A DNA stretch of 38,916 nucleotides from a virus, in the IMG/VR virus record IMGVR_UViG_3300045988_128868, positions 1 to 38,916 of that record; one strand, 5' to 3'. Below are positions 178-23,681 of the stretch, in pieces; the first letter of the stretch is position 1, and each line of letters starts with the position of its first letter. The translations under genes and the position numbers were made by a program. The notes under the pieces are model-generated. The model saw only the letters and a program-made list of their open reading frames with translations, had not been told where the DNA came from and searched no databases.

Positions 178-1221
178 TTAAGATATCTTGGACATCTCTT
201 TTTGCAGGGTTTTATCCGACACCAAAGCGTAATATTTTAGCGTTGTGCTGTACTCTTCGTGACCGAGAATCATCTGGGTAGCCTCCGGGGTTACACCACT
301 TTCAACCATCATCGTTGCGCAGGTTTTACGGCAACTGTGAGGGGATAAGCGCCGTACTCCGATGGCATCAAGAGCACCATAATATTTTTTGCGCATGTAT
401 CCGGAGCTATAACCTGTACCGTCCTTTTTGCAAATCAATTTTTGACCACCGAGCTTTAATCTTGCCATGAGGTAGGGTTCTACGATTGGCAGTACCGGGA
501 CATGGCGGTTCTCTCCGGCTTCGGTCTTCAGACCGCCTATGAGCATTCTCTCTTTAATCAGATAGTCGTCTGGATTGAGCGCGAGCAATTCGGAGATGCG
601 GAAACCAGTGTAAATCAAAATTAATATGATATCTGCGTAGGGGACATTGTCCTCGGCGGCTTTCTTTATTTTCGCAACTTCTTCCTCTGTAAACGGGTGA
701 ACCTCGACTTTCTTTTTCTTTGGGAGTTTTAAAAATTTCGAGTAGTCCTTATAACAGATGTCGCGCTCCATCGCTATGTCGTACAGAACAGAAAACGATC
801 CTTTGATATATGACAATGAAGTTTTGCTTTGATTAAGATATGCATCAATACATTTCTGCATATCTTCCGTCCTTAATTCGCGGAACTTAATGCTTTTTAC
901 ATCTTCGGGGATCTTCTTCCATGCGGCGTTGTAGCAGTCCTTTGACTGCTTAGCCAGGTTCTTATATTCGGAACGAGAGAGCCACAAGGTGTGTAAGTCA
1001 TCGACAGTCATATTGATTTCAACTACCGGGTGTTCGAGGTAGTGAGCCAGAGCGGCTTTTGCCTCTTTGCTCGATGCGTAGTGCCCGAGGATTTCCTGCT
1101 TTTTAATCATCTTGCCTTGCTCGTCCAAGCTATAACTCGCCGGCAACGCGACGACCCAGGGACGCCGCTTGATATCCTTGCGTTTATATACGCTGCCTTC
1201 ACCGTTTTCACGCTTTGCCAT
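178..1221 (-). CDS. int: Tyrosine site-specific integrase
   Basis: 347 aa. Catalytic boxes are visible: TGFRISELLAL (Arg I), HSCRKTCAT (HxxR), LGHEEYSTTLKYY (His/Tyr). The gene is adjacent to attL. An AAGGAG RBS lies 11 nt upstream of the ATG. Confidence 0.93.
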   Translation of the reverse strand: MAKRENGEGSVYKRKDIKRRPWVVALPASYSLDEQGKMIKKQEILGHYASSKEAKAALAHYLEHPVVEINMTVDDLHTLWLSRSEYKNLAKQSKDCYNAAWKKIPEDVKSIKFRELRTEDMQKCIDAYLNQSKTSLSYIKGSFSVLYDIAMERDICYKDYSKFLKLPKKKKVEVHPFTEEEVAKIKKAAEDNVPYADIILILIYTGFRISELLALNPDDYLIKERMLIGGLKTEAGENRHVPVLPIVEPYLMARLKLGGQKLICKKDGTGYSSGYMRKKYYGALDAIGVRRLSPHSCRKTCATMMVESGVTPEATQMILGHEEYSTTLKYYALVSDKTLQKEMSKIS

Positions 1222-16944: not shown

Positions 16945-18177
16945 ATGGCCGTCAGGCTTACTGACATAATCGCGCCGTCGTTTTATGAGGTGCATCGCGA
17001 TGTGTGTGCTGGGCAGCATACGCACTATGTGCTTAAAGGCGGGCGCGGAAGCACGAAGAGCAGCTATATATCGCTTGAAATTGTCTGCGGCATCATTAAA
17101 AACCCTGACGCGCACGCGATCGTGTTCCGCAAAATTGCAGACACGCTGCGGGACAGTGTTTTTGCACAAATGCTGTGGGCTATTGATAAACTGGGCGTGT
17201 CGCAGTATTTTAAAGCGACGGTCAGTCCGATGAAAATCACATATCTGCCGAGCGGGCAAACGATTATGTTTCGAGGTCTTGACGATCCGATGAAAGTCAA
17301 GTCCATAAAAATCCCGTTCGGCTATTTTCGTTATATCTGGTTCGAGGAATGGAATCAGTTTTCCGGGATGCGGGAAACCGATAATGTGCTGCAGTCGGTC
17401 ATGCGCGGCGGCAGTAAATTCGATGTTTTTTATTCGTACAATCCCCCTGAGTCGCTGCGGGCGTGGGTGAATGATGAGGTGCGCGTAGAGCGCGCCGACC
17501 GCCTGGTACATCACAGCACATATTTGACTGTGCCGCAGGACTGGATAGGCGCGCCGCTGCTGTTGGAGGCGGAGCACCTGAAACAGCACTCACCGGAACG
17601 ATATAGGCACGAGTTCCTCGGTGAAGTCACCGGCACGGGCGGCGAGGTATTCCGGAACATCAGTATCCGACCCATCAGCAATGAAGAGATTGCGCGGTTT
17701 GACCATATCAGGCGCGGCATAGACTGGGGCTATGCGGTTGACCCGTTTGTTTTTATATCGTGCAACTATGACAAGCCGCGCAGGCGGCTGTACATATACG
17801 ACGAGATATACGCGGCGGGCATGAGCAACAGACTTGCCGCCGACCGTATAAAATCTCGTGGAGTTGCCGGCGAAATTATCGCAGACTCCGCTGAACCGAA
17901 GTCTATAGCGGATATGTATGAATACGGTCTGAGAGTCAGAGGCGCACGCAAGGGTCCGGACAGCGTGAAGCACGGCATAGAATGGTTGCGCGACCTCGAC
18001 GAAATAATAATAGATCCCGCCCGCTGTCCAAACGCGGCGCGGGAATTTTCATCGTATGAGCTCGAACGAGATAAGGACGGCAATTATAAGGCGAACTATC
18101 CCGATAGAGACAACCACACGATTGACGCCACGCGCTACGCCACCGAGAACGACCAGCAGAATGTGAGGGTAACTTAA
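16945..18177 (+). CDS. terL: Terminase large subunit (PBSX/Terminase_3 type)
   Basis: 410 aa. Walker A-like motif is LKGGRGSTKSS. The nuclease half carries DWGY...DP and DxxRY motifs. Confidence 0.92.
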   Translation: MAVRLTDIIAPSFYEVHRDVCAGQHTHYVLKGGRGSTKSSYISLEIVCGIIKNPDAHAIVFRKIADTLRDSVFAQMLWAIDKLGVSQYFKATVSPMKITYLPSGQTIMFRGLDDPMKVKSIKIPFGYFRYIWFEEWNQFSGMRETDNVLQSVMRGGSKFDVFYSYNPPESLRAWVNDEVRVERADRLVHHSTYLTVPQDWIGAPLLLEAEHLKQHSPERYRHEFLGEVTGTGGEVFRNISIRPISNEEIARFDHIRRGIDWGYAVDPFVFISCNYDKPRRRLYIYDEIYAAGMSNRLAADRIKSRGVAGEIIADSAEPKSIADMYEYGLRVRGARKGPDSVKHGIEWLRDLDEIIIDPARCPNAAREFSSYELERDKDGNYKANYPDRDNHTIDATRYATENDQQNVRVT

Positions 18178-19712
18178 TGATTAACAATATGGACTTGATA
18201 AGAGAAAAGCTCGCGTATCACCATACGGCTACGGACGATGAGATTATCAAAACCGTGCTTAAAAATGCGCGGGAAGACCCGGAGTATCTGGCGGCATGCG
18301 AGGGACTCCGATATTATCGCGGTATGCAGGACATTCTTCAGAAAGATTTTCGCGAGACGGTTGTCTACGAAGAAGACGAAAACAGCCCGGCGGGCATAAA
18401 GCGCGGCGGCGTTAAGATAATCAATGAAAACAATTCGAATCACCACAATGTGCATAATTTCCATGCGCTGATGGTCGATCAGAAAGTCGCGTACATTCTC
18501 GGCAAGCCGCTTTCCGTCTCCGTCGAGGGTGCAAATGATGGAGCGGGCAGTGTGGATGAAAGCCTGAAAGCTTTTGAGGACGCTGTCACCGCAGTGACCT
18601 CAGACGAGGCTTTTGTGGACATGCTCCCCGACCTCGCGACAAATGCGTCGAATTGTATCGTCGGATGGCTGCATGTCTATTACTCGGCAGCCGGCAAGCT
18701 TTGTTTTGTTGTTATCCCGACGACAGAATGTATTGCCTGCCGCGATATGAGTTATCAGCAGGTGATTACCGACTTTTTCCGCCACTATAAAATAACCGTC
18801 GTGCAAAACGGCACAGAGACGGAGCGGGAGCGGGTAGAGTGGTGGACTGCGACAGGGGTAAAACGCTATGTCGAAAACGATGCCGGAGAGTTTGTGCTCG
18901 AAAGCAACAGCCCGCACTGGTATAACGAGCAGATAATCAACGATGAGCGCGTCTCGGTTGAGGCGAAATCGTGGGGAAGAATCCCGTTTGTTCCGCTTTA
19001 TAACAACTCTGCGCATCAGACCGACCTTTCGCGAATCAAAGGTCTGCTTGACGCATATAACCTGATATCTTCTGCGTCGACGAATAATCAGATAGATCTC
19101 GTCGAGCTCTATTGGATGATACAGGGATACGGCGGCGAGACCGCAAAAGCGATACAGCAGAAGCTGCAGATAAACAAGGCGGTGTCAATAAGCGATCCGT
19201 CCGGCAAGATAAGCGCGGAGCAGGTCACACTTAATGTCACCGAGCGCCTCGCCTGGCTCGATATGCTGCGCCGGGACATATATCATATTGGACGCGGCAT
19301 TGATATGAACGATGAAAAGCTCGGCAGCGCGCCGTCAGGCGTCAGTCTGAAATTCCGCTACACCCTGCTTGACCTTAAGGCTGACCCGCTTGTCTCAAAG
19401 TTAAAGGTCATGCTGAAAGAGCTGTCATGGTTTATTACGCAGGACATTAACCTGAAGAACGGTACTGACTATGACTATACACTTATCAAATACGATGTCC
19501 ACAAGTCGATGATAGTCAATGACGCGGAGACGGTGGATATAATTCAGAAGTCGCAGGGGCTTGTGCCCGATAAGATGCTTTTAGCAAAGCACCCGTTTGT
19601 TGACGATGTCGCGCAGGCGTATGAGGAGCTGCAGAAGCAGCGCGAGGAAAACGCAAAGATGTTTATCGGCGACGATGACGACAAGGACGATTCCGAAAAG
19701 GATGATGAATAA
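18177..19712 (+). CDS. Portal protein (SPP1 gp6-like)
   Basis: 511 aa, positioned after terL with a TAATG overlap and an acidic C-terminus. Confidence 0.85.
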   Translation: MINNMDLIREKLAYHHTATDDEIIKTVLKNAREDPEYLAACEGLRYYRGMQDILQKDFRETVVYEEDENSPAGIKRGGVKIINENNSNHHNVHNFHALMVDQKVAYILGKPLSVSVEGANDGAGSVDESLKAFEDAVTAVTSDEAFVDMLPDLATNASNCIVGWLHVYYSAAGKLCFVVIPTTECIACRDMSYQQVITDFFRHYKITVVQNGTETERERVEWWTATGVKRYVENDAGEFVLESNSPHWYNEQIINDERVSVEAKSWGRIPFVPLYNNSAHQTDLSRIKGLLDAYNLISSASTNNQIDLVELYWMIQGYGGETAKAIQQKLQINKAVSISDPSGKISAEQVTLNVTERLAWLDMLRRDIYHIGRGIDMNDEKLGSAPSGVSLKFRYTLLDLKADPLVSKLKVMLKELSWFITQDINLKNGTDYDYTLIKYDVHKSMIVNDAETVDIIQKSQGLVPDKMLLAKHPFVDDVAQAYEELQKQREENAKMFIGDDDDKDDSEKDDE

Positions 19713-21451
19713 TGCGCTCTGATCTCTATTGGGAGGAGCGGGCACTGCAGCGCGAGGAATATGCCCGACGTGCCTCGACGCGGGCTATAAAGACAAAAAC
19801 GGTCAAGTTATACGCCAAGGCGCAGAAGGACCTCGACGCCCGCATAAATCGGATATTTTCGCGTTATGCGGCAAATGGTGAATTGACGCCGGAAGAAGCT
19901 CGTCGGATGTTGAACACCAAAGAAGCGGAAGCGGAATTGGAAGCACTGCGCAAAGAGCTCAATAACATAAAAGACCCGGTCATAAAGAGAAAAGCACTTG
20001 CTCGTCTCAATGCGCCGGCATACGCCGCGAGGATAAACCGCCTTGAGGCTTTGAAAGCCAATATCGAGACGGAAACGGCATTGCTTGCCGACCGGGAGAA
20101 GCGGGAGCTCAAGCGGCTGTTTGAAGACGTGAGCGGGGATACATACTATCGCAGTATATATGACACGCAGATCGGTACGGGATTAGGCTTTGAGTTCTCA
20201 GCCCTGCCGAAAGGTTCCGTAAACACCATAGTAAATGACCGATGGAAAGGTGCGAATTTTTCCGACCGCATCTGGCAGAACACATCCGCGCTTGCCAACA
20301 GCGCATACGGTATTGTGACGCGTGGAATTATGACGGGAGCGGGTCCGCAGGTAATGGCGCGCCAGCTCGCCGAAGCTATGCAGTCCGGAATGTATAACTC
20401 GATGCGGCTGATACGCACCGAGACTAACCGTGTGCACAACGCTGCTGAAAAAGCGGCATACGAAGAGGAAGGCATAACGGAATATAGATTCCTCGCCACT
20501 CTTGACGGGTGCACCTGCGATGTCTGCGGCGCTTTGGACGGCAAGACTTTTCCGGTCTCCGAAGCGAAGGAGGGCATAAACTATCCGCCGCTTCATCCGA
20601 ACGACCGCTGCACCACAACGGCAGTCATAGAGGGACAAAACCGAGCCGAACTCAAACGCAGGGCATTGGATCCCGAGACCGGGAAAACGGTGCTTATTCC
20701 GGCAGAAACGACATATGAAGAGTGGCTTGCGGATAATATAAATCCTCTTACCGGGAAGCTTAAATATTATCCGCCCAGGACTTTGACACAAGTGTCCTCC
20801 TACAATAGAGATCAGTTCGAACGGTATTCGGCAGTCTTAAAAGAAAACGTGCCGGATTCTCTTGATGAATTCTTAAAAATAAAGTATAATGATCCTGAGA
20901 AGTGGAAGACGCTCAAGAGGCAATACCGCTTGGTGAATCAATACAAGATAGATTCAGGCAATTTATCTACTGATGAAATCTTACGGTTTGATAAAAAGGT
21001 TATTTATGAAAAAAGACTCCAGTTCACGAGCAAATACAAAAGAAGCGGAAACATTGCCGGAGCATATATCGATGATGATTTTGACAATATGTACTATGCA
21101 CATAGTGCAGTATCTACAAAAGCAGATAGCAGTGGGTATAAAGGAACTGGAAAATTGGTCTTACTAAAAGAGGCACGACGTTTTAAATATATTGCTGTTC
21201 GCCGAGAGGATGGAACGATAAGAGAAGGAACCCACAATGATACTGAGGCAAAGCTTTTTGAGTTCTTTGCTGATTTGTATGAAACAACCCCCTTTAAAAA
21301 GATATGTATGCTTTCCGAACGTGGAATGTGTGATAGCTGTAAAGGGGTGATGCAGCAATTTAAAGAACTATACCCGGATGTTGAAGTGAATGTTATCTCA
21401 AACAAAAGGGTTGAAGGCAATGTTTGGAAAGAAAGGGTGAGAAAAAGATGA
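19712..21451 (+). CDS. MuF/SPP1 gp7-like minor head protein fused to a deaminase-like polymorphic-toxin C-terminal domain
   Basis: 579 aa. The MuF core is RTETNRVHNAA...ATLDGCTCDVCGALDGKTF...PPLHPNDRCT. The C-terminal ~150 aa carry HNDTEAK (H/DxE) and CDSC (CxxC) 28 aa apart. GC falls from about 57% to 30-43% after roughly nt 20790. Confidence 0.8.
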   Translation: MRSDLYWEERALQREEYARRASTRAIKTKTVKLYAKAQKDLDARINRIFSRYAANGELTPEEARRMLNTKEAEAELEALRKELNNIKDPVIKRKALARLNAPAYAARINRLEALKANIETETALLADREKRELKRLFEDVSGDTYYRSIYDTQIGTGLGFEFSALPKGSVNTIVNDRWKGANFSDRIWQNTSALANSAYGIVTRGIMTGAGPQVMARQLAEAMQSGMYNSMRLIRTETNRVHNAAEKAAYEEEGITEYRFLATLDGCTCDVCGALDGKTFPVSEAKEGINYPPLHPNDRCTTTAVIEGQNRAELKRRALDPETGKTVLIPAETTYEEWLADNINPLTGKLKYYPPRTLTQVSSYNRDQFERYSAVLKENVPDSLDEFLKIKYNDPEKWKTLKRQYRLVNQYKIDSGNLSTDEILRFDKKVIYEKRLQFTSKYKRSGNIAGAYIDDDFDNMYYAHSAVSTKADSSGYKGTGKLVLLKEARRFKYIAVRREDGTIREGTHNDTEAKLFEFFADLYETTPFKKICMLSERGMCDSCKGVMQQFKELYPDVEVNVISNKRVEGNVWKERVRKR

Positions 21452-21807
21452 AATACGACCTTGATTATCAGGGCGCAACAGAAATTTTTGAAAGTCGTGT
21501 GATTACGAGTATACCGCCAATAACGGGAAGACTTCTCGAAAATTCATATCTTTCGGAGTTCGATCAGGATATCCTTGAAGAAGCCGAACGTCTTAACGCG
21601 GTGCTTCCGCTGATAAAGTGGGAAGTGGACAACGACGACCTCACAGAAGCTATGAGTGATGAGCTCTATCTCTACTATGAGGATTTGCTCAAAGGTCGCC
21701 TCGACGGAATACTGGACGAAGAAGAAGCCCCGATTATCATAAAAGACCTCACCGAGAGCTATATAAAGGCTTTCGGAAAAGATACTCTTGATGAAGAGGA
21801 TCAATAA
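21448..21807 (+). CDS. Acidic small protein, putative cognate immunity protein
   Basis: 119 aa with an ATGA overlap to the toxin-fusion stop (translational coupling). It is highly acidic and is followed by two hairpin terminators. Confidence 0.6.
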   Translation: MKYDLDYQGATEIFESRVITSIPPITGRLLENSYLSEFDQDILEEAERLNAVLPLIKWEVDNDDLTEAMSDELYLYYEDLLKGRLDGILDEEEAPIIIKDLTESYIKAFGKDTLDEEDQ

Positions 21808-21816
21808 TAAATAACA

Positions 21817-21844
21817 AGCCGCCAAGCGAAAGCGAGGCGGTTTT
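21817..21844 (+). terminator. Intrinsic terminator after the immunity-like gene
   Basis: The stem pairs AGCCGCC with GGCGGTT, followed by a T run. Confidence 0.5.
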
Positions 21845-21869
21845 GTCATATCACAACATAATAATTACA

Positions 21870-21902
21870 GCGTTTTGCAGTCAAATGCAAAGCGCTGTTT
21901 TT
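21870..21902 (+). terminator. Second terminator-like hairpin
   Basis: The stem pairs GCGTTTTGCA with TGCAAAGCGC (10 bp, one G-U pair) around a 6-nt loop, followed by TGTTTTT. Confidence 0.5.
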
Positions 21903-21992
21903 ATATCCAAATTTATCCGCCACCCGGAGCAAAATGGTGTCGCGCAGTATTGGGACTGGCCAAGTAAAAAGGGAGCGCGGGAAAGGACAGAC

Positions 21993-22550
21993 ATGGACTG
22001 GCTTAAAGACATTTTAGGCGACGCACACACCGAGGACATCGACAAGAAGATAGCGAGCTATATCGGCAAGAACTTTGTTTCAAAAGCAGATTTTCGCGCC
22101 GAGTCCGACAAGGTCAAGAACCTTGAGGGTCAGATAGCAGAGCGGGACAGTCAGCTTGAAGAGCTCAAAAAGGTTGATACCGCCGGGCTGCAAGCTACGA
22201 TTACACAGCTGCAGAACGAAAACAAGCAGGCTAAGGCTAAGTATGACAGCGATATTGCCGCCATGAAGCTTGACTCCGCTATCGATGCCGCTATTACAGC
22301 CGCCAAAGGCAAGAATGCAAGAGCTATAAAAGCCTTGATAACGCCCGGCAGCGTGAAGCTCGACAAAGACGGCAAGCTCGAGGGCTTTGACGATCAGCTC
22401 AAGGCAATCAGAGAAAGCGACGCCTATCTCTTTGACAAAGTCGAAACCAGACAGAGGGGCGGAGACCCCGACCACGGCGGCGGAGACCCCGAACCGGGCG
22501 AAGCCCCCGAGAACTATGCCGATTATGTGAATTGGCGCAAAAATCAGTAA
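21993..22550 (+). CDS. Scaffolding protein (DUF4355/GP20-like)
   Basis: 185 aa from MDWLKDILGD. It is coiled-coil rich and lies directly upstream of the coat gene. The ORF-track start at 21843 has no RBS. Confidence 0.75.
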   Translation: MDWLKDILGDAHTEDIDKKIASYIGKNFVSKADFRAESDKVKNLEGQIAERDSQLEELKKVDTAGLQATITQLQNENKQAKAKYDSDIAAMKLDSAIDAAITAAKGKNARAIKALITPGSVKLDKDGKLEGFDDQLKAIRESDAYLFDKVETRQRGGDPDHGGGDPEPGEAPENYADYVNWRKNQ

Positions 22551-22568: not shown

Positions 22569-23681
22569 ATGTCAAACAAATTCCTGACTCCTCAGATAGT
22601 CGCGAACGAGGCTCTTATGGTGCTCGAGAACAATCTCGTTGCTGCCGACCTTGTCCACAAGGACTATTCCAAGGAGTTCGCACACGTCGGTGATACTATC
22701 ACCATCCGCAAGCCCGCGAAGTTTTCCGCGAAGAACTTCGTCGGCGAGACCGTAGACCAGAATGTGAACGAGGGCAGCGTCAAGGTGACCCTTGACCATT
22801 TCCGCGATGTCACCGTTCCGGTCACTTCCAAGGAAATGACCCTCGACATCAAGTCATTTTCTGAGCAGATCATATCTCCTGCGGTGCAGGCCATATCCCA
22901 GGCTATCGACAGCGATATTATTGCTGAGGGCATCGCGAATGCCGGCAACACCGTGAGCGGCACCGCGAACGCGACCGACCTCAAGGACATTGCCAACATT
23001 GCCAAGGCGTTTGACCTCAAGGGCGTGCCGATACAGCAGCGCAGACTGCTCGTCAACCCGACGCACAAGTATCGCTATCTGACCACGGAGAACCTCTCAA
23101 AGGTCGCATACGCGGGCAACTCCGACGCCCTGCGTTCGGCGGAGCTCGGCTCTATTTATGGTCTTGACACCTATATGTCGCAGAATGCCCCCGATACCCT
23201 CGCGGCAACTGCGGGTACTGCGACCGCTGCAAAGGTCTCCTGCACCGCCGGCGAGACTAAGGTCGCACTCTCGGATGTCACTGCGACGACCGGCACCTTT
23301 AAAAAGGGCGACGGCTTTATCCTCGACGGCTATCTTTACAGATTTGCCGCCGATGCAACTGCCGCAAGCGGCGCGGTCGCCGAGGTCGCGATAGATCAGC
23401 CTATCCACCGCACTATTGCCTCGGACGCGGCAGTCAAGGTGTATCTCGTCAAAACGACCCACTCCCTCGCGTTCCACCGCAACGGCCTTGCACTCGTCAC
23501 CCGTCAGCTTGAGCTGCCTATGGGCGCGAATAATGCGGCTATTGCATCGAGCAGGAACGGTCTTGCTATCAGAGTCGTATATGATTACGACATCAAGCAC
23601 AAGACCGACCGCGTCAGCTTTGATATCCTGTACGGCGTCAAGACCCTTGACAGCGACATGACCGCAAGGCTGGTGGGCTAA
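22569..23681 (+). CDS. Major capsid protein (P22 coat-like fold family)
   Basis: 370 aa. The N-terminus LTPQIVANEALMVLENNLVAADLVHKDYSKEF..VGDTITIRKP is typical of P22_CoatProtein-type capsid proteins. Confidence 0.85.
   Translation: MSNKFLTPQIVANEALMVLENNLVAADLVHKDYSKEFAHVGDTITIRKPAKFSAKNFVGETVDQNVNEGSVKVTLDHFRDVTVPVTSKEMTLDIKSFSEQIISPAVQAISQAIDSDIIAEGIANAGNTVSGTANATDLKDIANIAKAFDLKGVPIQQRRLLVNPTHKYRYLTTENLSKVAYAGNSDALRSAELGSIYGLDTYMSQNAPDTLAATAGTATAAKVSCTAGETKVALSDVTATTGTFKKGDGFILDGYLYRFAADATAASGAVAEVAIDQPIHRTIASDAAVKVYLVKTTHSLAFHRNGLALVTRQLELPMGANNAAIASSRNGLAIRVVYDYDIKHKTDRVSFDILYGVKTLDSDMTARLVG

Follow-up and report, generated by a model that had tools for sequence, protein, structure and literature searches.

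The window analysed here is the 38,916-nucleotide stretch at positions 1 to 38,916 of the IMG/VR virus record IMGVR_UViG_3300045988_128868, and the subject is a pair of overlapping genes in its head module: a gene for a 579-residue fusion of a MuF-type minor head protein with a deaminase-like toxin domain, and a gene for a small acidic protein, the candidate immunity partner of this toxin (Table 1). The genes are arranged in the order of large terminase, portal, fusion gene, immunity candidate, scaffold and major head protein, and the presence of a tyrosine integrase gene indicates that the phage is temperate. An earlier note, made from the nucleotide letters without database searches, had described a 579-codon open reading frame (ORF) with an N-terminal MuF/SPP1 gp7 module, a very acidic downstream ORF of 119 codons beginning in an ATGA overlap, and two hairpin terminators, and it had assigned the fusion to the class of MuF-toxin fusions of temperate phages. 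All of these elements were recovered where the note had placed them, and the class assignment agrees with the integrase gene and with the site of the fusion gene between portal and scaffold.

Table 1. Coordinates of the fusion gene, its parts, the immunity candidate and neighbouring features in the window.
Feature	Position	Strand	Basis or remark
MuF-deaminase fusion gene, 579 residues	19712..21451	+	single uninterrupted ORF; PF04233 and PF14424, TIGR01641, phrog_115
MuF/SPP1-gp7 minor head protein module, residues 1-360, presumed capsid-targeting	19712..20791	+	PF04233, TIGR01641
Pre-toxin linker, residues 361-430, low GC	20792..21001	+	GC 37.6%
Predicted BURPS668_1122-type deaminase toxin domain, residues 431-579	21002..21448	+	PF14424, AlphaFold model
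Codons D510-T-E512-A-K514, helix-2 catalytic motif DxExK	21239..21253	+	invariant, 63/63
Codons C540-D-S-C543, helix-3 CxxC, predicted zinc ligands	21329..21340	+	C540, S542 and C543 invariant, 63/63
Hypervariable island, toxin domain and first ~55 immunity codons	21012..21612	+	within phage lineage
Cognate immunity candidate, 119 residues, isoelectric point (pI) 4.05, 32 D+E, five predicted helices	21448..21807	+	ATGA overlap, co-variation, orphan copies
Hairpin 1, terminator-like, G+C stem then UUUUG	21814..21846	+	-17 kcal/mol, z -5.2
Hairpin 2, terminator-like, 13-bp stem 21867-21898 then UUUUUAU	21861..21904	+	-23.5 kcal/mol, z -8.3; terminator scan
Large terminase	16945-18177	+	PHROG terminase large subunit 1.6e-56
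Portal	18177-19712	+	PHROG 1.2e-97; adjoins fusion gene upstream
Head scaffolding protein	21993-22550	+	PHROG 6e-50
Major head protein	22569-23681	+	PHROG 5e-87
Tyrosine integrase	178..1221	-	phrog_1 integrase 1.6e-49

The head-protein module is matched by PF04233 at residues 202–302 (E 1.8e-16, 61.3 bits against a cut-off of 29.6) and by TIGR01641, the SPP1 gp7 family, at residues 201–306 (E 3e-23, 82.2 bits against a cut-off of 39.65), and phrog_115 “minor head protein” spans residues 1–462 (E 1.9e-106). Across about 50 related viral contigs, the MuF part is 96–98% identical and the toxin part 74–100%. Judged by its sequence, the locus thus has the whole architecture of a MuF polymorphic toxin, namely a MuF N-terminus, a site in the head module, a variable toxin C-terminus and a small downstream ORF. 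The guanine-plus-cytosine (GC) content is 53.1% in the MuF part, 37.6% in the linker, 38.2% in the toxin domain and 43.6% in the next ORF, and in 200-nucleotide windows it falls from 0.575 to a minimum of 0.355. The drop begins at about 20750–20800, about 210 nucleotides upstream of the boundary at which the sequence is swapped in relatives (about 21000); the fall at about 20790 that the earlier note had seen is therefore real, but it does not mark the present-day swap boundary. The low-GC linker of about 70 residues moves together with the deaminase between scaffolds of the PF04233 and PF06152 types. Its identity is 43–100% wherever the toxin domain is at least 52% identical, PF06152 scaffolds included, and in the AlphaFold model its last 30 or so residues lie packed against the deaminase domain.

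The toxin domain matched PF14424, the “BURPS668_1122 family of deaminases,” at residues 433–565 with 121.7 bits (cut-off 29.6; E 3.5e-35) in an alignment covering positions 3–146 of the 146 in the model. This was the profile search against deaminase toxin families that the earlier note had proposed, and of the two families named there, BURPS668_1122 was found in full length, but YwqJ (PF14431) gave no match; besides PF14424, only an insignificant match to PF14427 (E 0.17) was obtained. THNDTEAK lies at residues 506–514 and CDSC at 540–543, with 28 residues from E512 to C540. The note had read an H/DxE motif and a CxxC motif at this spacing, of which DxE, CxxC and the spacing hold, but HxE does not: relatives read TYNDTEAK and TFRDTEAK at the same site and the clade is defined by DxE, so that H507 was rejected as a part of the catalytic motif. 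Genomes, viral contigs and metagenomes supplied 63 distinct sequences of the toxin domain (35–100% identity), in which R504, D510, E512, A513, K514, E517, the run S535-E-R-G-M-C540, S542, and C543 are invariant, and H464 is kept in 62; none of these homologues lacks the DxE or CxxC residues, the absence of which the note had named as a reason for doubt. R504 corresponds to the Arg that precedes the DxExK motif in the clade, and the residue two after C543 is Gly, as opposed to the Ser of the published CxxCxS pattern.

An AlphaFold model of the toxin domain, built on 36 homologues, has a predicted local distance difference test score (pLDDT) of 94.6 and a predicted template modelling score (pTM) of 0.91. 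In its own residue numbering, strands 49–54 and 62–65 are followed by an insert of about 45 residues, a helix (112–126) that is opened by DxE, a strand (131–136), a helix (142–154) with CxxC at its N-terminus, a strand (159–165), and then only a tail. The order is therefore a1-b1-b2-insert-a2(DxE)-b3-a3(CxxC)-b4, after which the fold is truncated. An insert, a C-terminal truncation and a DxExK signature are the published description of the BURPS668_1122 clade (Iyer et al., 2011, PMC3239186), and the agreement of the element order and of DxExK with this description supports a deaminase core. Weak APOBEC_N Pfam matches are found in relatives.

The ATG of the immunity candidate at 21448 overlaps the TGA stop codon of the toxin (AGATGAAA), and an in-frame TTG at 21424 is an alternative start that would give a protein of 127 residues. 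At window positions 21408–21451, the codons of a conserved V-E-G-(N/D)-V-W stretch at the toxin C-terminus double as a Shine-Dalgarno-like GGAGG or GAAGG and an in-frame start. This start, ATG or TTG, arises where the Trp codon joins the final base of the Val codon, and the same is seen at loci L011, L018, L019, L083, and L088-L091. Because of this dual coding, the true immunity start is ambiguous between TTG 21424 and ATG 21448; homology limits of the toxin-less copies described below support ATG 21448 as a sufficient start. The AlphaFold model of the protein has five helices (pLDDT 90) and no structural neighbour in Foldseek. No match was found in Pfam, NCBIfam or PHROG, and neither this protein nor the fusion protein matched the PADLOC defence models at E up to 0.1. 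Imm2, Imm3, and SUKH are the immunity families reported with the BURPS668_1122 deaminase clade, and the all-helical acidic character resembles the one-line published descriptions of Imm2 and Imm3, the comparison being one of descriptions only. Membership in these families was rejected at the level of Pfam models, since neither 31 aligned homologues (E up to 5) nor 10 distant representatives gave a Pfam immunity match. The family is small, with 66 clusters at 50% identity among 1.84 billion representatives.

Linkage between the two genes was followed through relatives of the toxin, which are encoded at 20 genome loci and on 72 viral contigs. Here, the ORFs extracted from behind the toxin gene overlap it by 4–34 nucleotides and encode proteins of 107–130 residues with a pI of 4.1–4.8. 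A profile of the immunity family was tested on 21 of these ORFs and matches 20, the one that it misses (L096) being a wrong-frame ORF pick; toxin identity in the tested loci is 35–100%, and ORFs behind toxins only 35–57% identical are among the matches. Furthermore, the two proteins vary together. Identity to the window of the toxin and that of its partner are correlated with a Spearman coefficient of 0.94 over 39 distinct pairs, which are related sequences and not independent points, and the coefficient is 0.78 within phages whose MuF parts are at least 95% identical.

Within the phage lineage of the window, variation is concentrated in a hypervariable island that runs from the toxin domain through the first 55 or so immunity codons. 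DNA identity is 53–95% in the island vs. 93–100% in both flanks, and the C-terminal half of the immunity protein stays 94–100% identical. For example, the natural allele of L067 is 75% identical to the window type in the toxin and 49% in the N-terminal half of the immunity protein. The synonymous substitution rate (dS) is 0.3–1.8 in the island against about 0.1 in the flanks, i.e., 3- to 15-fold higher, and the ratio of the nonsynonymous rate (dN) to dS is 0.09–0.26. In-situ positive selection was rejected as the cause, because dS is raised as much as dN; raised dS together with the low dN/dS indicates that old functional alleles were exchanged by recombination between conserved arms. Such exchange is textbook behaviour of polymorphic toxin-immunity cassettes. 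Probably, the specificity of the toxin-immunity pair resides in the first 55 or so residues of the immunity protein. From these comparisons, a MuF-deaminase toxin with a cognate immunity protein can be predicted with high confidence, and the toxin-immunity reading offered by the earlier note gains comparative support from the linkage, the co-variation and the shared island.

All relatives of the toxin clade lie on phage head-protein scaffolds, either PF04233 or PF06152 (phage minor capsid protein 2), or on truncated relics of these. Two 277-residue proteins, P0003 and P0010, with another N-terminus and non-phage neighbours were considered as a second, non-phage delivery scaffold, and this was rejected, as they are truncated prophage relics. 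In such relics (L001:5994-7949, L010:5608-7489, and L015:5527-6864), a 5′-truncated MuF-linker-toxin gene and the immunity gene are found among non-phage chromosomal genes. For example, L015 begins at the last MuF motif (HPxCR). L001 shares window positions 21000–21806 at 95% identity overall and about 99% DNA identity in the toxin domain, keeps the hairpin region 21819–21911 (91% identity) and 60 nucleotides of the phage right end (window 38807–38866), and is bracketed by 151-bp direct repeats. Decaying prophages thus tend to retain exactly the toxin-immunity pair.

There are also loci that resemble deletion derivatives of the phage (L055:1-3200; also L036 and L071), in which the genes from scaffold to lysis are gone. 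Their order is toxin, immunity gene, hairpins, a short fragment like the scaffold N-terminus, window 38807–38866 and integrase, and L071 lies with a full copy, L058, on one 41-kb contig.

The immunity gene is found without its toxin as well. A search of metagenome contigs with the immunity family, made without bias towards toxins, gave 80 loci, of which 46 are toxin-linked, 30 have no toxin within at least 700 nucleotides upstream, and 4 are too short to judge; toxin-less loci thus make up 30 of the 76 assessable gut-metagenome loci. In 28 of these 30 orphans, DNA homology to the window covers exactly 21443–21807, i.e., the ORF plus five nucleotides. Moreover, 29 of 31 orphans occupy one chromosomal site, with a sodium/proline symporter gene on one side and an opposite-strand gene for a 312-residue protein on the other, and the flanks of this site are 94–100% identical. 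The orphan gene is intact (119 residues) and has a near-consensus promoter, TTGACA-17-TATATT (11/12), and a ribosome-binding site, AGGAGGG. Its first 100–200 nucleotides are a hot spot of variation (60–95% identity) amid a conserved region, and its N-terminal alleles are 84–100% identical to toxin-linked alleles. The reference locus is L101:3001-3360, with further copies at L103-L176 and L003-L006, and one exact orphan protein occurs on 694 contigs. By source, the carriers are Oscillospiraceae, Acutalibacteraceae or Ruminococcus sp. Two long contigs carry the orphan and, 150–200 kb away, a prophage of the window's lineage with a MuF part 97% identical, which indicates that an Oscillospirales bacterium is the host of the phage. 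These sequences are most simply explained if the toxin arrives in non-producing cells and if selection favours its neutralisation in the host population. Promoter-equipped, polymorphic orphans in host chromosomes are therefore indirect support for delivery of the toxin with the phage particle.

In a variant of the orphan locus, P0135 (L003-L006:5001-5453), a frameshift after about residue 83 gives a protein of 150 residues with an unrelated tail, and additional genes for MerR, aldo-keto reductase, cupin, and flavodoxin are found between symporter and orphan. P0166 (L007:1459-2651) is an orphan immunity homologue 54% identical, divergently arranged beside an HTH_3/Peptidase_S24 repressor-like gene and a Fic/antitoxin pair, and it may be a cargo gene of a prophage lysogeny module.

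It was Jamet et al. (2017, PMC5576092) who defined the MuF polymorphic toxins carried by temperate phages, and a MuF/capsid route was listed by Zhang et al. (2012). For the family as a whole, presence in virions and delivery into the infected cell are a hypothesis of the literature. The only characterised members are Apk2 ((p)ppApp synthetases) and Bxa (an ADP-ribosyltransferase), which are toxic and neutralised by adjacent immunity genes (PMC11699363; PMC12226406). The window locus shares with MuF toxins the N-terminal MuF part, the head-module site after the portal gene, the variable C-terminal toxin, the small downstream ORF and the temperate phage. Unlike in Apk2 and Bxa, the cargo is a predicted nucleic-acid deaminase, and the single immunity candidate is non-enzymatic, a second immunity gene of the hydrolase type being absent. 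The word “deaminase” is absent from the main text of Jamet et al. (2017, PMC5576092), and the sole “deaminases” noted among Bxa relatives are glutamine deaminases. For the clade itself, a “terminase based” route was described, and a capsid-packaged toxin was proposed in the case of Clostridium perfringens AC5_0860 (Iyer et al., 2011, PMC3239186).

Among GenBank phages, the window locus found no match in a DNA search, nor did the immunity protein in a protein search, and the fusion protein found only two distant phages. Clostridium phage phiCT9441A (L100, record 20319–22335) and Terrisporobacter phage TVCOM_ph1 have MuF together with PF14424 under the GenBank label “minor head protein” alone. 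Gp40 of phiCT9441A is like the window protein in joining PF04233 to PF14424, in lying between portal and scaffold and in being followed by an acidic ORF of 110 codons, and in both AC5_0860 and gp40 the same deaminase clade is linked to phage DNA-packaging genes. Their toxin domains, however, are only 37–41% identical to that of the window, and the 110-codon ORF was neither detected by the immunity profile nor assigned to any family here.

DddA (SCP1.201/BaDTF1), SsdA (DYW-like/BaDTF2), and BaDTF3 (Pput_2613-like) are likewise deaminase-fold toxins with cognate immunity; they are mutagenic C-to-T enzymes carried between Gram-negative cells by type VI secretion. SCP1.201 is described as the sister clade of BURPS668_1122, and both have a polar residue at the second position beyond the catalytic Glu (Iyer et al., 2011, PMC3239186). 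The three differ from the window toxin in their Pfam families, in HxE instead of DxE in most and in type VI delivery, and the toxin domain gave neither a sequence match nor a significant fold match to their solved structures. Closer in family are CdiA-CT toxins with PF14424 (Pseudomonas aeruginosa LESB58 and Yersinia intermedia), which are also followed by a small immunity gene but are delivered by contact-dependent inhibition in Proteobacteria, and the activity of which is only predicted, too. Orphan immunity genes and acquired interbacterial defence islands are known against type VI toxins. The chromosomal orphans here are like the former in having immunity without toxin, an own promoter and strain polymorphism, and are unlike them in that phage head proteins are the only carriers of matching toxins and that a single gene occupies one fixed chromosomal site. 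Orphan immunity genes are mentioned in PMC11699363, and the literature searched gave no description, for MuF toxins, of a polymorphic chromosomal orphan of this kind. The fusion gene is accordingly a member of a known, bioinformatically predicted kind of system, and the uncurated immunity family, the mapped swap boundaries and the polymorphic chromosomal orphan locus are new with respect to that literature.

On the whole, the locus is likely to encode a MuF-family polymorphic toxin of a temperate gut Oscillospirales phage, with a deaminase cargo and adjacent immunity. The MuF/gp7 module, which in SPP1-like phages binds the portal and puts a few protein copies inside the capsid, would bring in a cargo composed of the linker and a BURPS668_1122-type zinc deaminase (D510/E512/K514, C540/C543). 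In the producing cell, the co-translated acidic helical protein would bind and block the deaminase and thereby guard the cell and the replicating phage DNA during late gene expression. The head-borne toxin might then be ejected with the genome into the next cell and deaminate cytosines there, most likely in single-stranded DNA, unless a matching immunity allele is present; moderate confidence is placed in DNA as the substrate and in injection. Toxin domain and N-terminal half of the immunity protein would diversify jointly, as old alleles are swapped by recombination between the conserved flanks. A further-reaching version is proposed only tentatively: the deaminase, injected with the phage genome, harms the recipients, and the host has domesticated the immunity gene, which it keeps at a fixed chromosomal position with a separate promoter and with an N-terminal specificity region that tracks the toxin alleles. 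If this doubtful version were true, phage and host would be engaged in an arms race in which virions deliver a DNA-editing enzyme, and the stand-alone immunity gene would be a new type of protection against a phage-borne toxin. In this version, a small number of deaminase molecules brought in with the genome might also have a mutator effect on cells that have just been infected or lysogenised.

Several points weigh against a virion-delivered deaminase toxin. Foldseek searches of the toxin model against PDB and BFVD gave no significant match (none with E < 0.03), and no deaminase was detectable in PDB by single sequence or by profile, so that assignment of the deaminase fold rests on Pfam and the published profile analysis. 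Deaminases were the only coherent group among the weak structural matches, with APOBEC3C (probability 0.69, template modelling score 0.35), CDD1, APOBEC1, A3G, and TadA, and weak BFVD matches were to dCMP deaminase and RadC. Asp in place of the usual His or Cys as a zinc ligand is unusual. Some toxin copies are inactivated, namely P0076, which has a frameshift near residue 445 and lies on a 150-kb contig, and P0032, in which an internal deletion removes the AHS motif and neighbouring strands. The frameshifted orphan P0135 is very common (841 blocks of the collection). A virion is believed to contain only 2–3 copies of a MuF protein, perhaps too few to kill, and an injected DNA deaminase could harm the phage's own genome as well. 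Finally, the immunity gene lies in the late operon, which makes its expression in lysogens an issue.

Would the enzyme rather serve the phage itself? As an effector, the head-borne deaminase would aid infection, for example by damaging host DNA or RNA, blunting defence or biasing the choice between lysis and lysogeny, and the partner would protect only the phage factory during late expression. Such a role would suit a gene in the head module, where any delivery is tied to infection, and a partner gene that is co-transcribed with the late genes and overlaps the toxin stop, and the literature assigns MuF toxins no known biological role. The allelic diversification of toxin and partner and the promoter-equipped polymorphic host orphans are, however, a signature of toxin-immunity conflict that is unexpected for a housekeeping infection factor. 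The effector explanation, in which the recipient cell is the target just as in the toxin-immunity reading, is therefore regarded as rather unlikely. Similarly low is the probability given to an enzyme acting on RNA (e.g., tRNA or rRNA) or free nucleotides in place of DNA. Enzymes that act on tRNA, mRNA and nucleotides all occur in the deaminase superfamily, the definition of the BURPS668_1122 clade did not settle its substrate, and TadA, CDD1, and dCMP deaminases are among the weak fold matches; nevertheless, PF14424 members gave C-to-T editing of single-stranded DNA in base-editor reporters, which is the only functional evidence for the family, and the sister clade SCP1.201 (DddA) and the other toxin clades tested are DNA deaminases.

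Two more explanations concern a single partner each, and both are highly improbable. If the 119-codon ORF encoded an assembly chaperone, a packaging adaptor or another head accessory protein, its place among head genes and its lack of a match to any known immunity family would be readily explained, but the ORF follows the toxin domain and not the scaffold type, being present with PF04233 fusions, PF06152 fusions and relics outside phage; it also co-varies with the toxin and occurs by itself, behind a separate promoter, in bacterial chromosomes, a setting without head assembly. Least credible of all is that the C-terminal domain is a catalytically dead remnant decorating the head protein. Some members of the clade (Perkinsus) are predicted to be inactive, many are truncated after helix 3, and the Asp ligand is atypical; against this, the catalytic and surrounding residues are invariant in the 63 sequences down to 35% identity, dN/dS is 0.09–0.19, and a dead domain would have no need of a dedicated, co-varying partner.

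Temperate phages of gut and pathogenic bacteria commonly carry MuF toxins, and the deaminase-tipped member is abundant in human gut metagenomes, with defined pair boundaries, several natural allele pairs and matching host orphan alleles. The system is thus suited to ask whether MuF cargo is packaged and injected, what it does in the recipient cell, and how toxin-immunity specificity is encoded. The domain is compact (about 150–180 residues) and represents an uncharacterised branch of a deaminase family of base-editing interest.

A few features around the pair remain to be mentioned. A promoter-like site at 20862–20890 lies inside the fusion gene, with 10 of 12 matches in an A+T-rich region, in a scan that gave 12 sites vs. 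5 expected. The surroundings of the hairpins reached no Rfam family over its threshold. Both hairpins fall between the immunity and scaffold genes, midway through the head operon, and are 97–100% conserved in the phage lineage; they could bound a separately expressed unit or demand antitermination for late transcription. Bases 1–52 of the window are identical to 38865–38916, as would be expected of a complete phage genome of about 38.86 kb that is circularly closed or has terminal redundancy.

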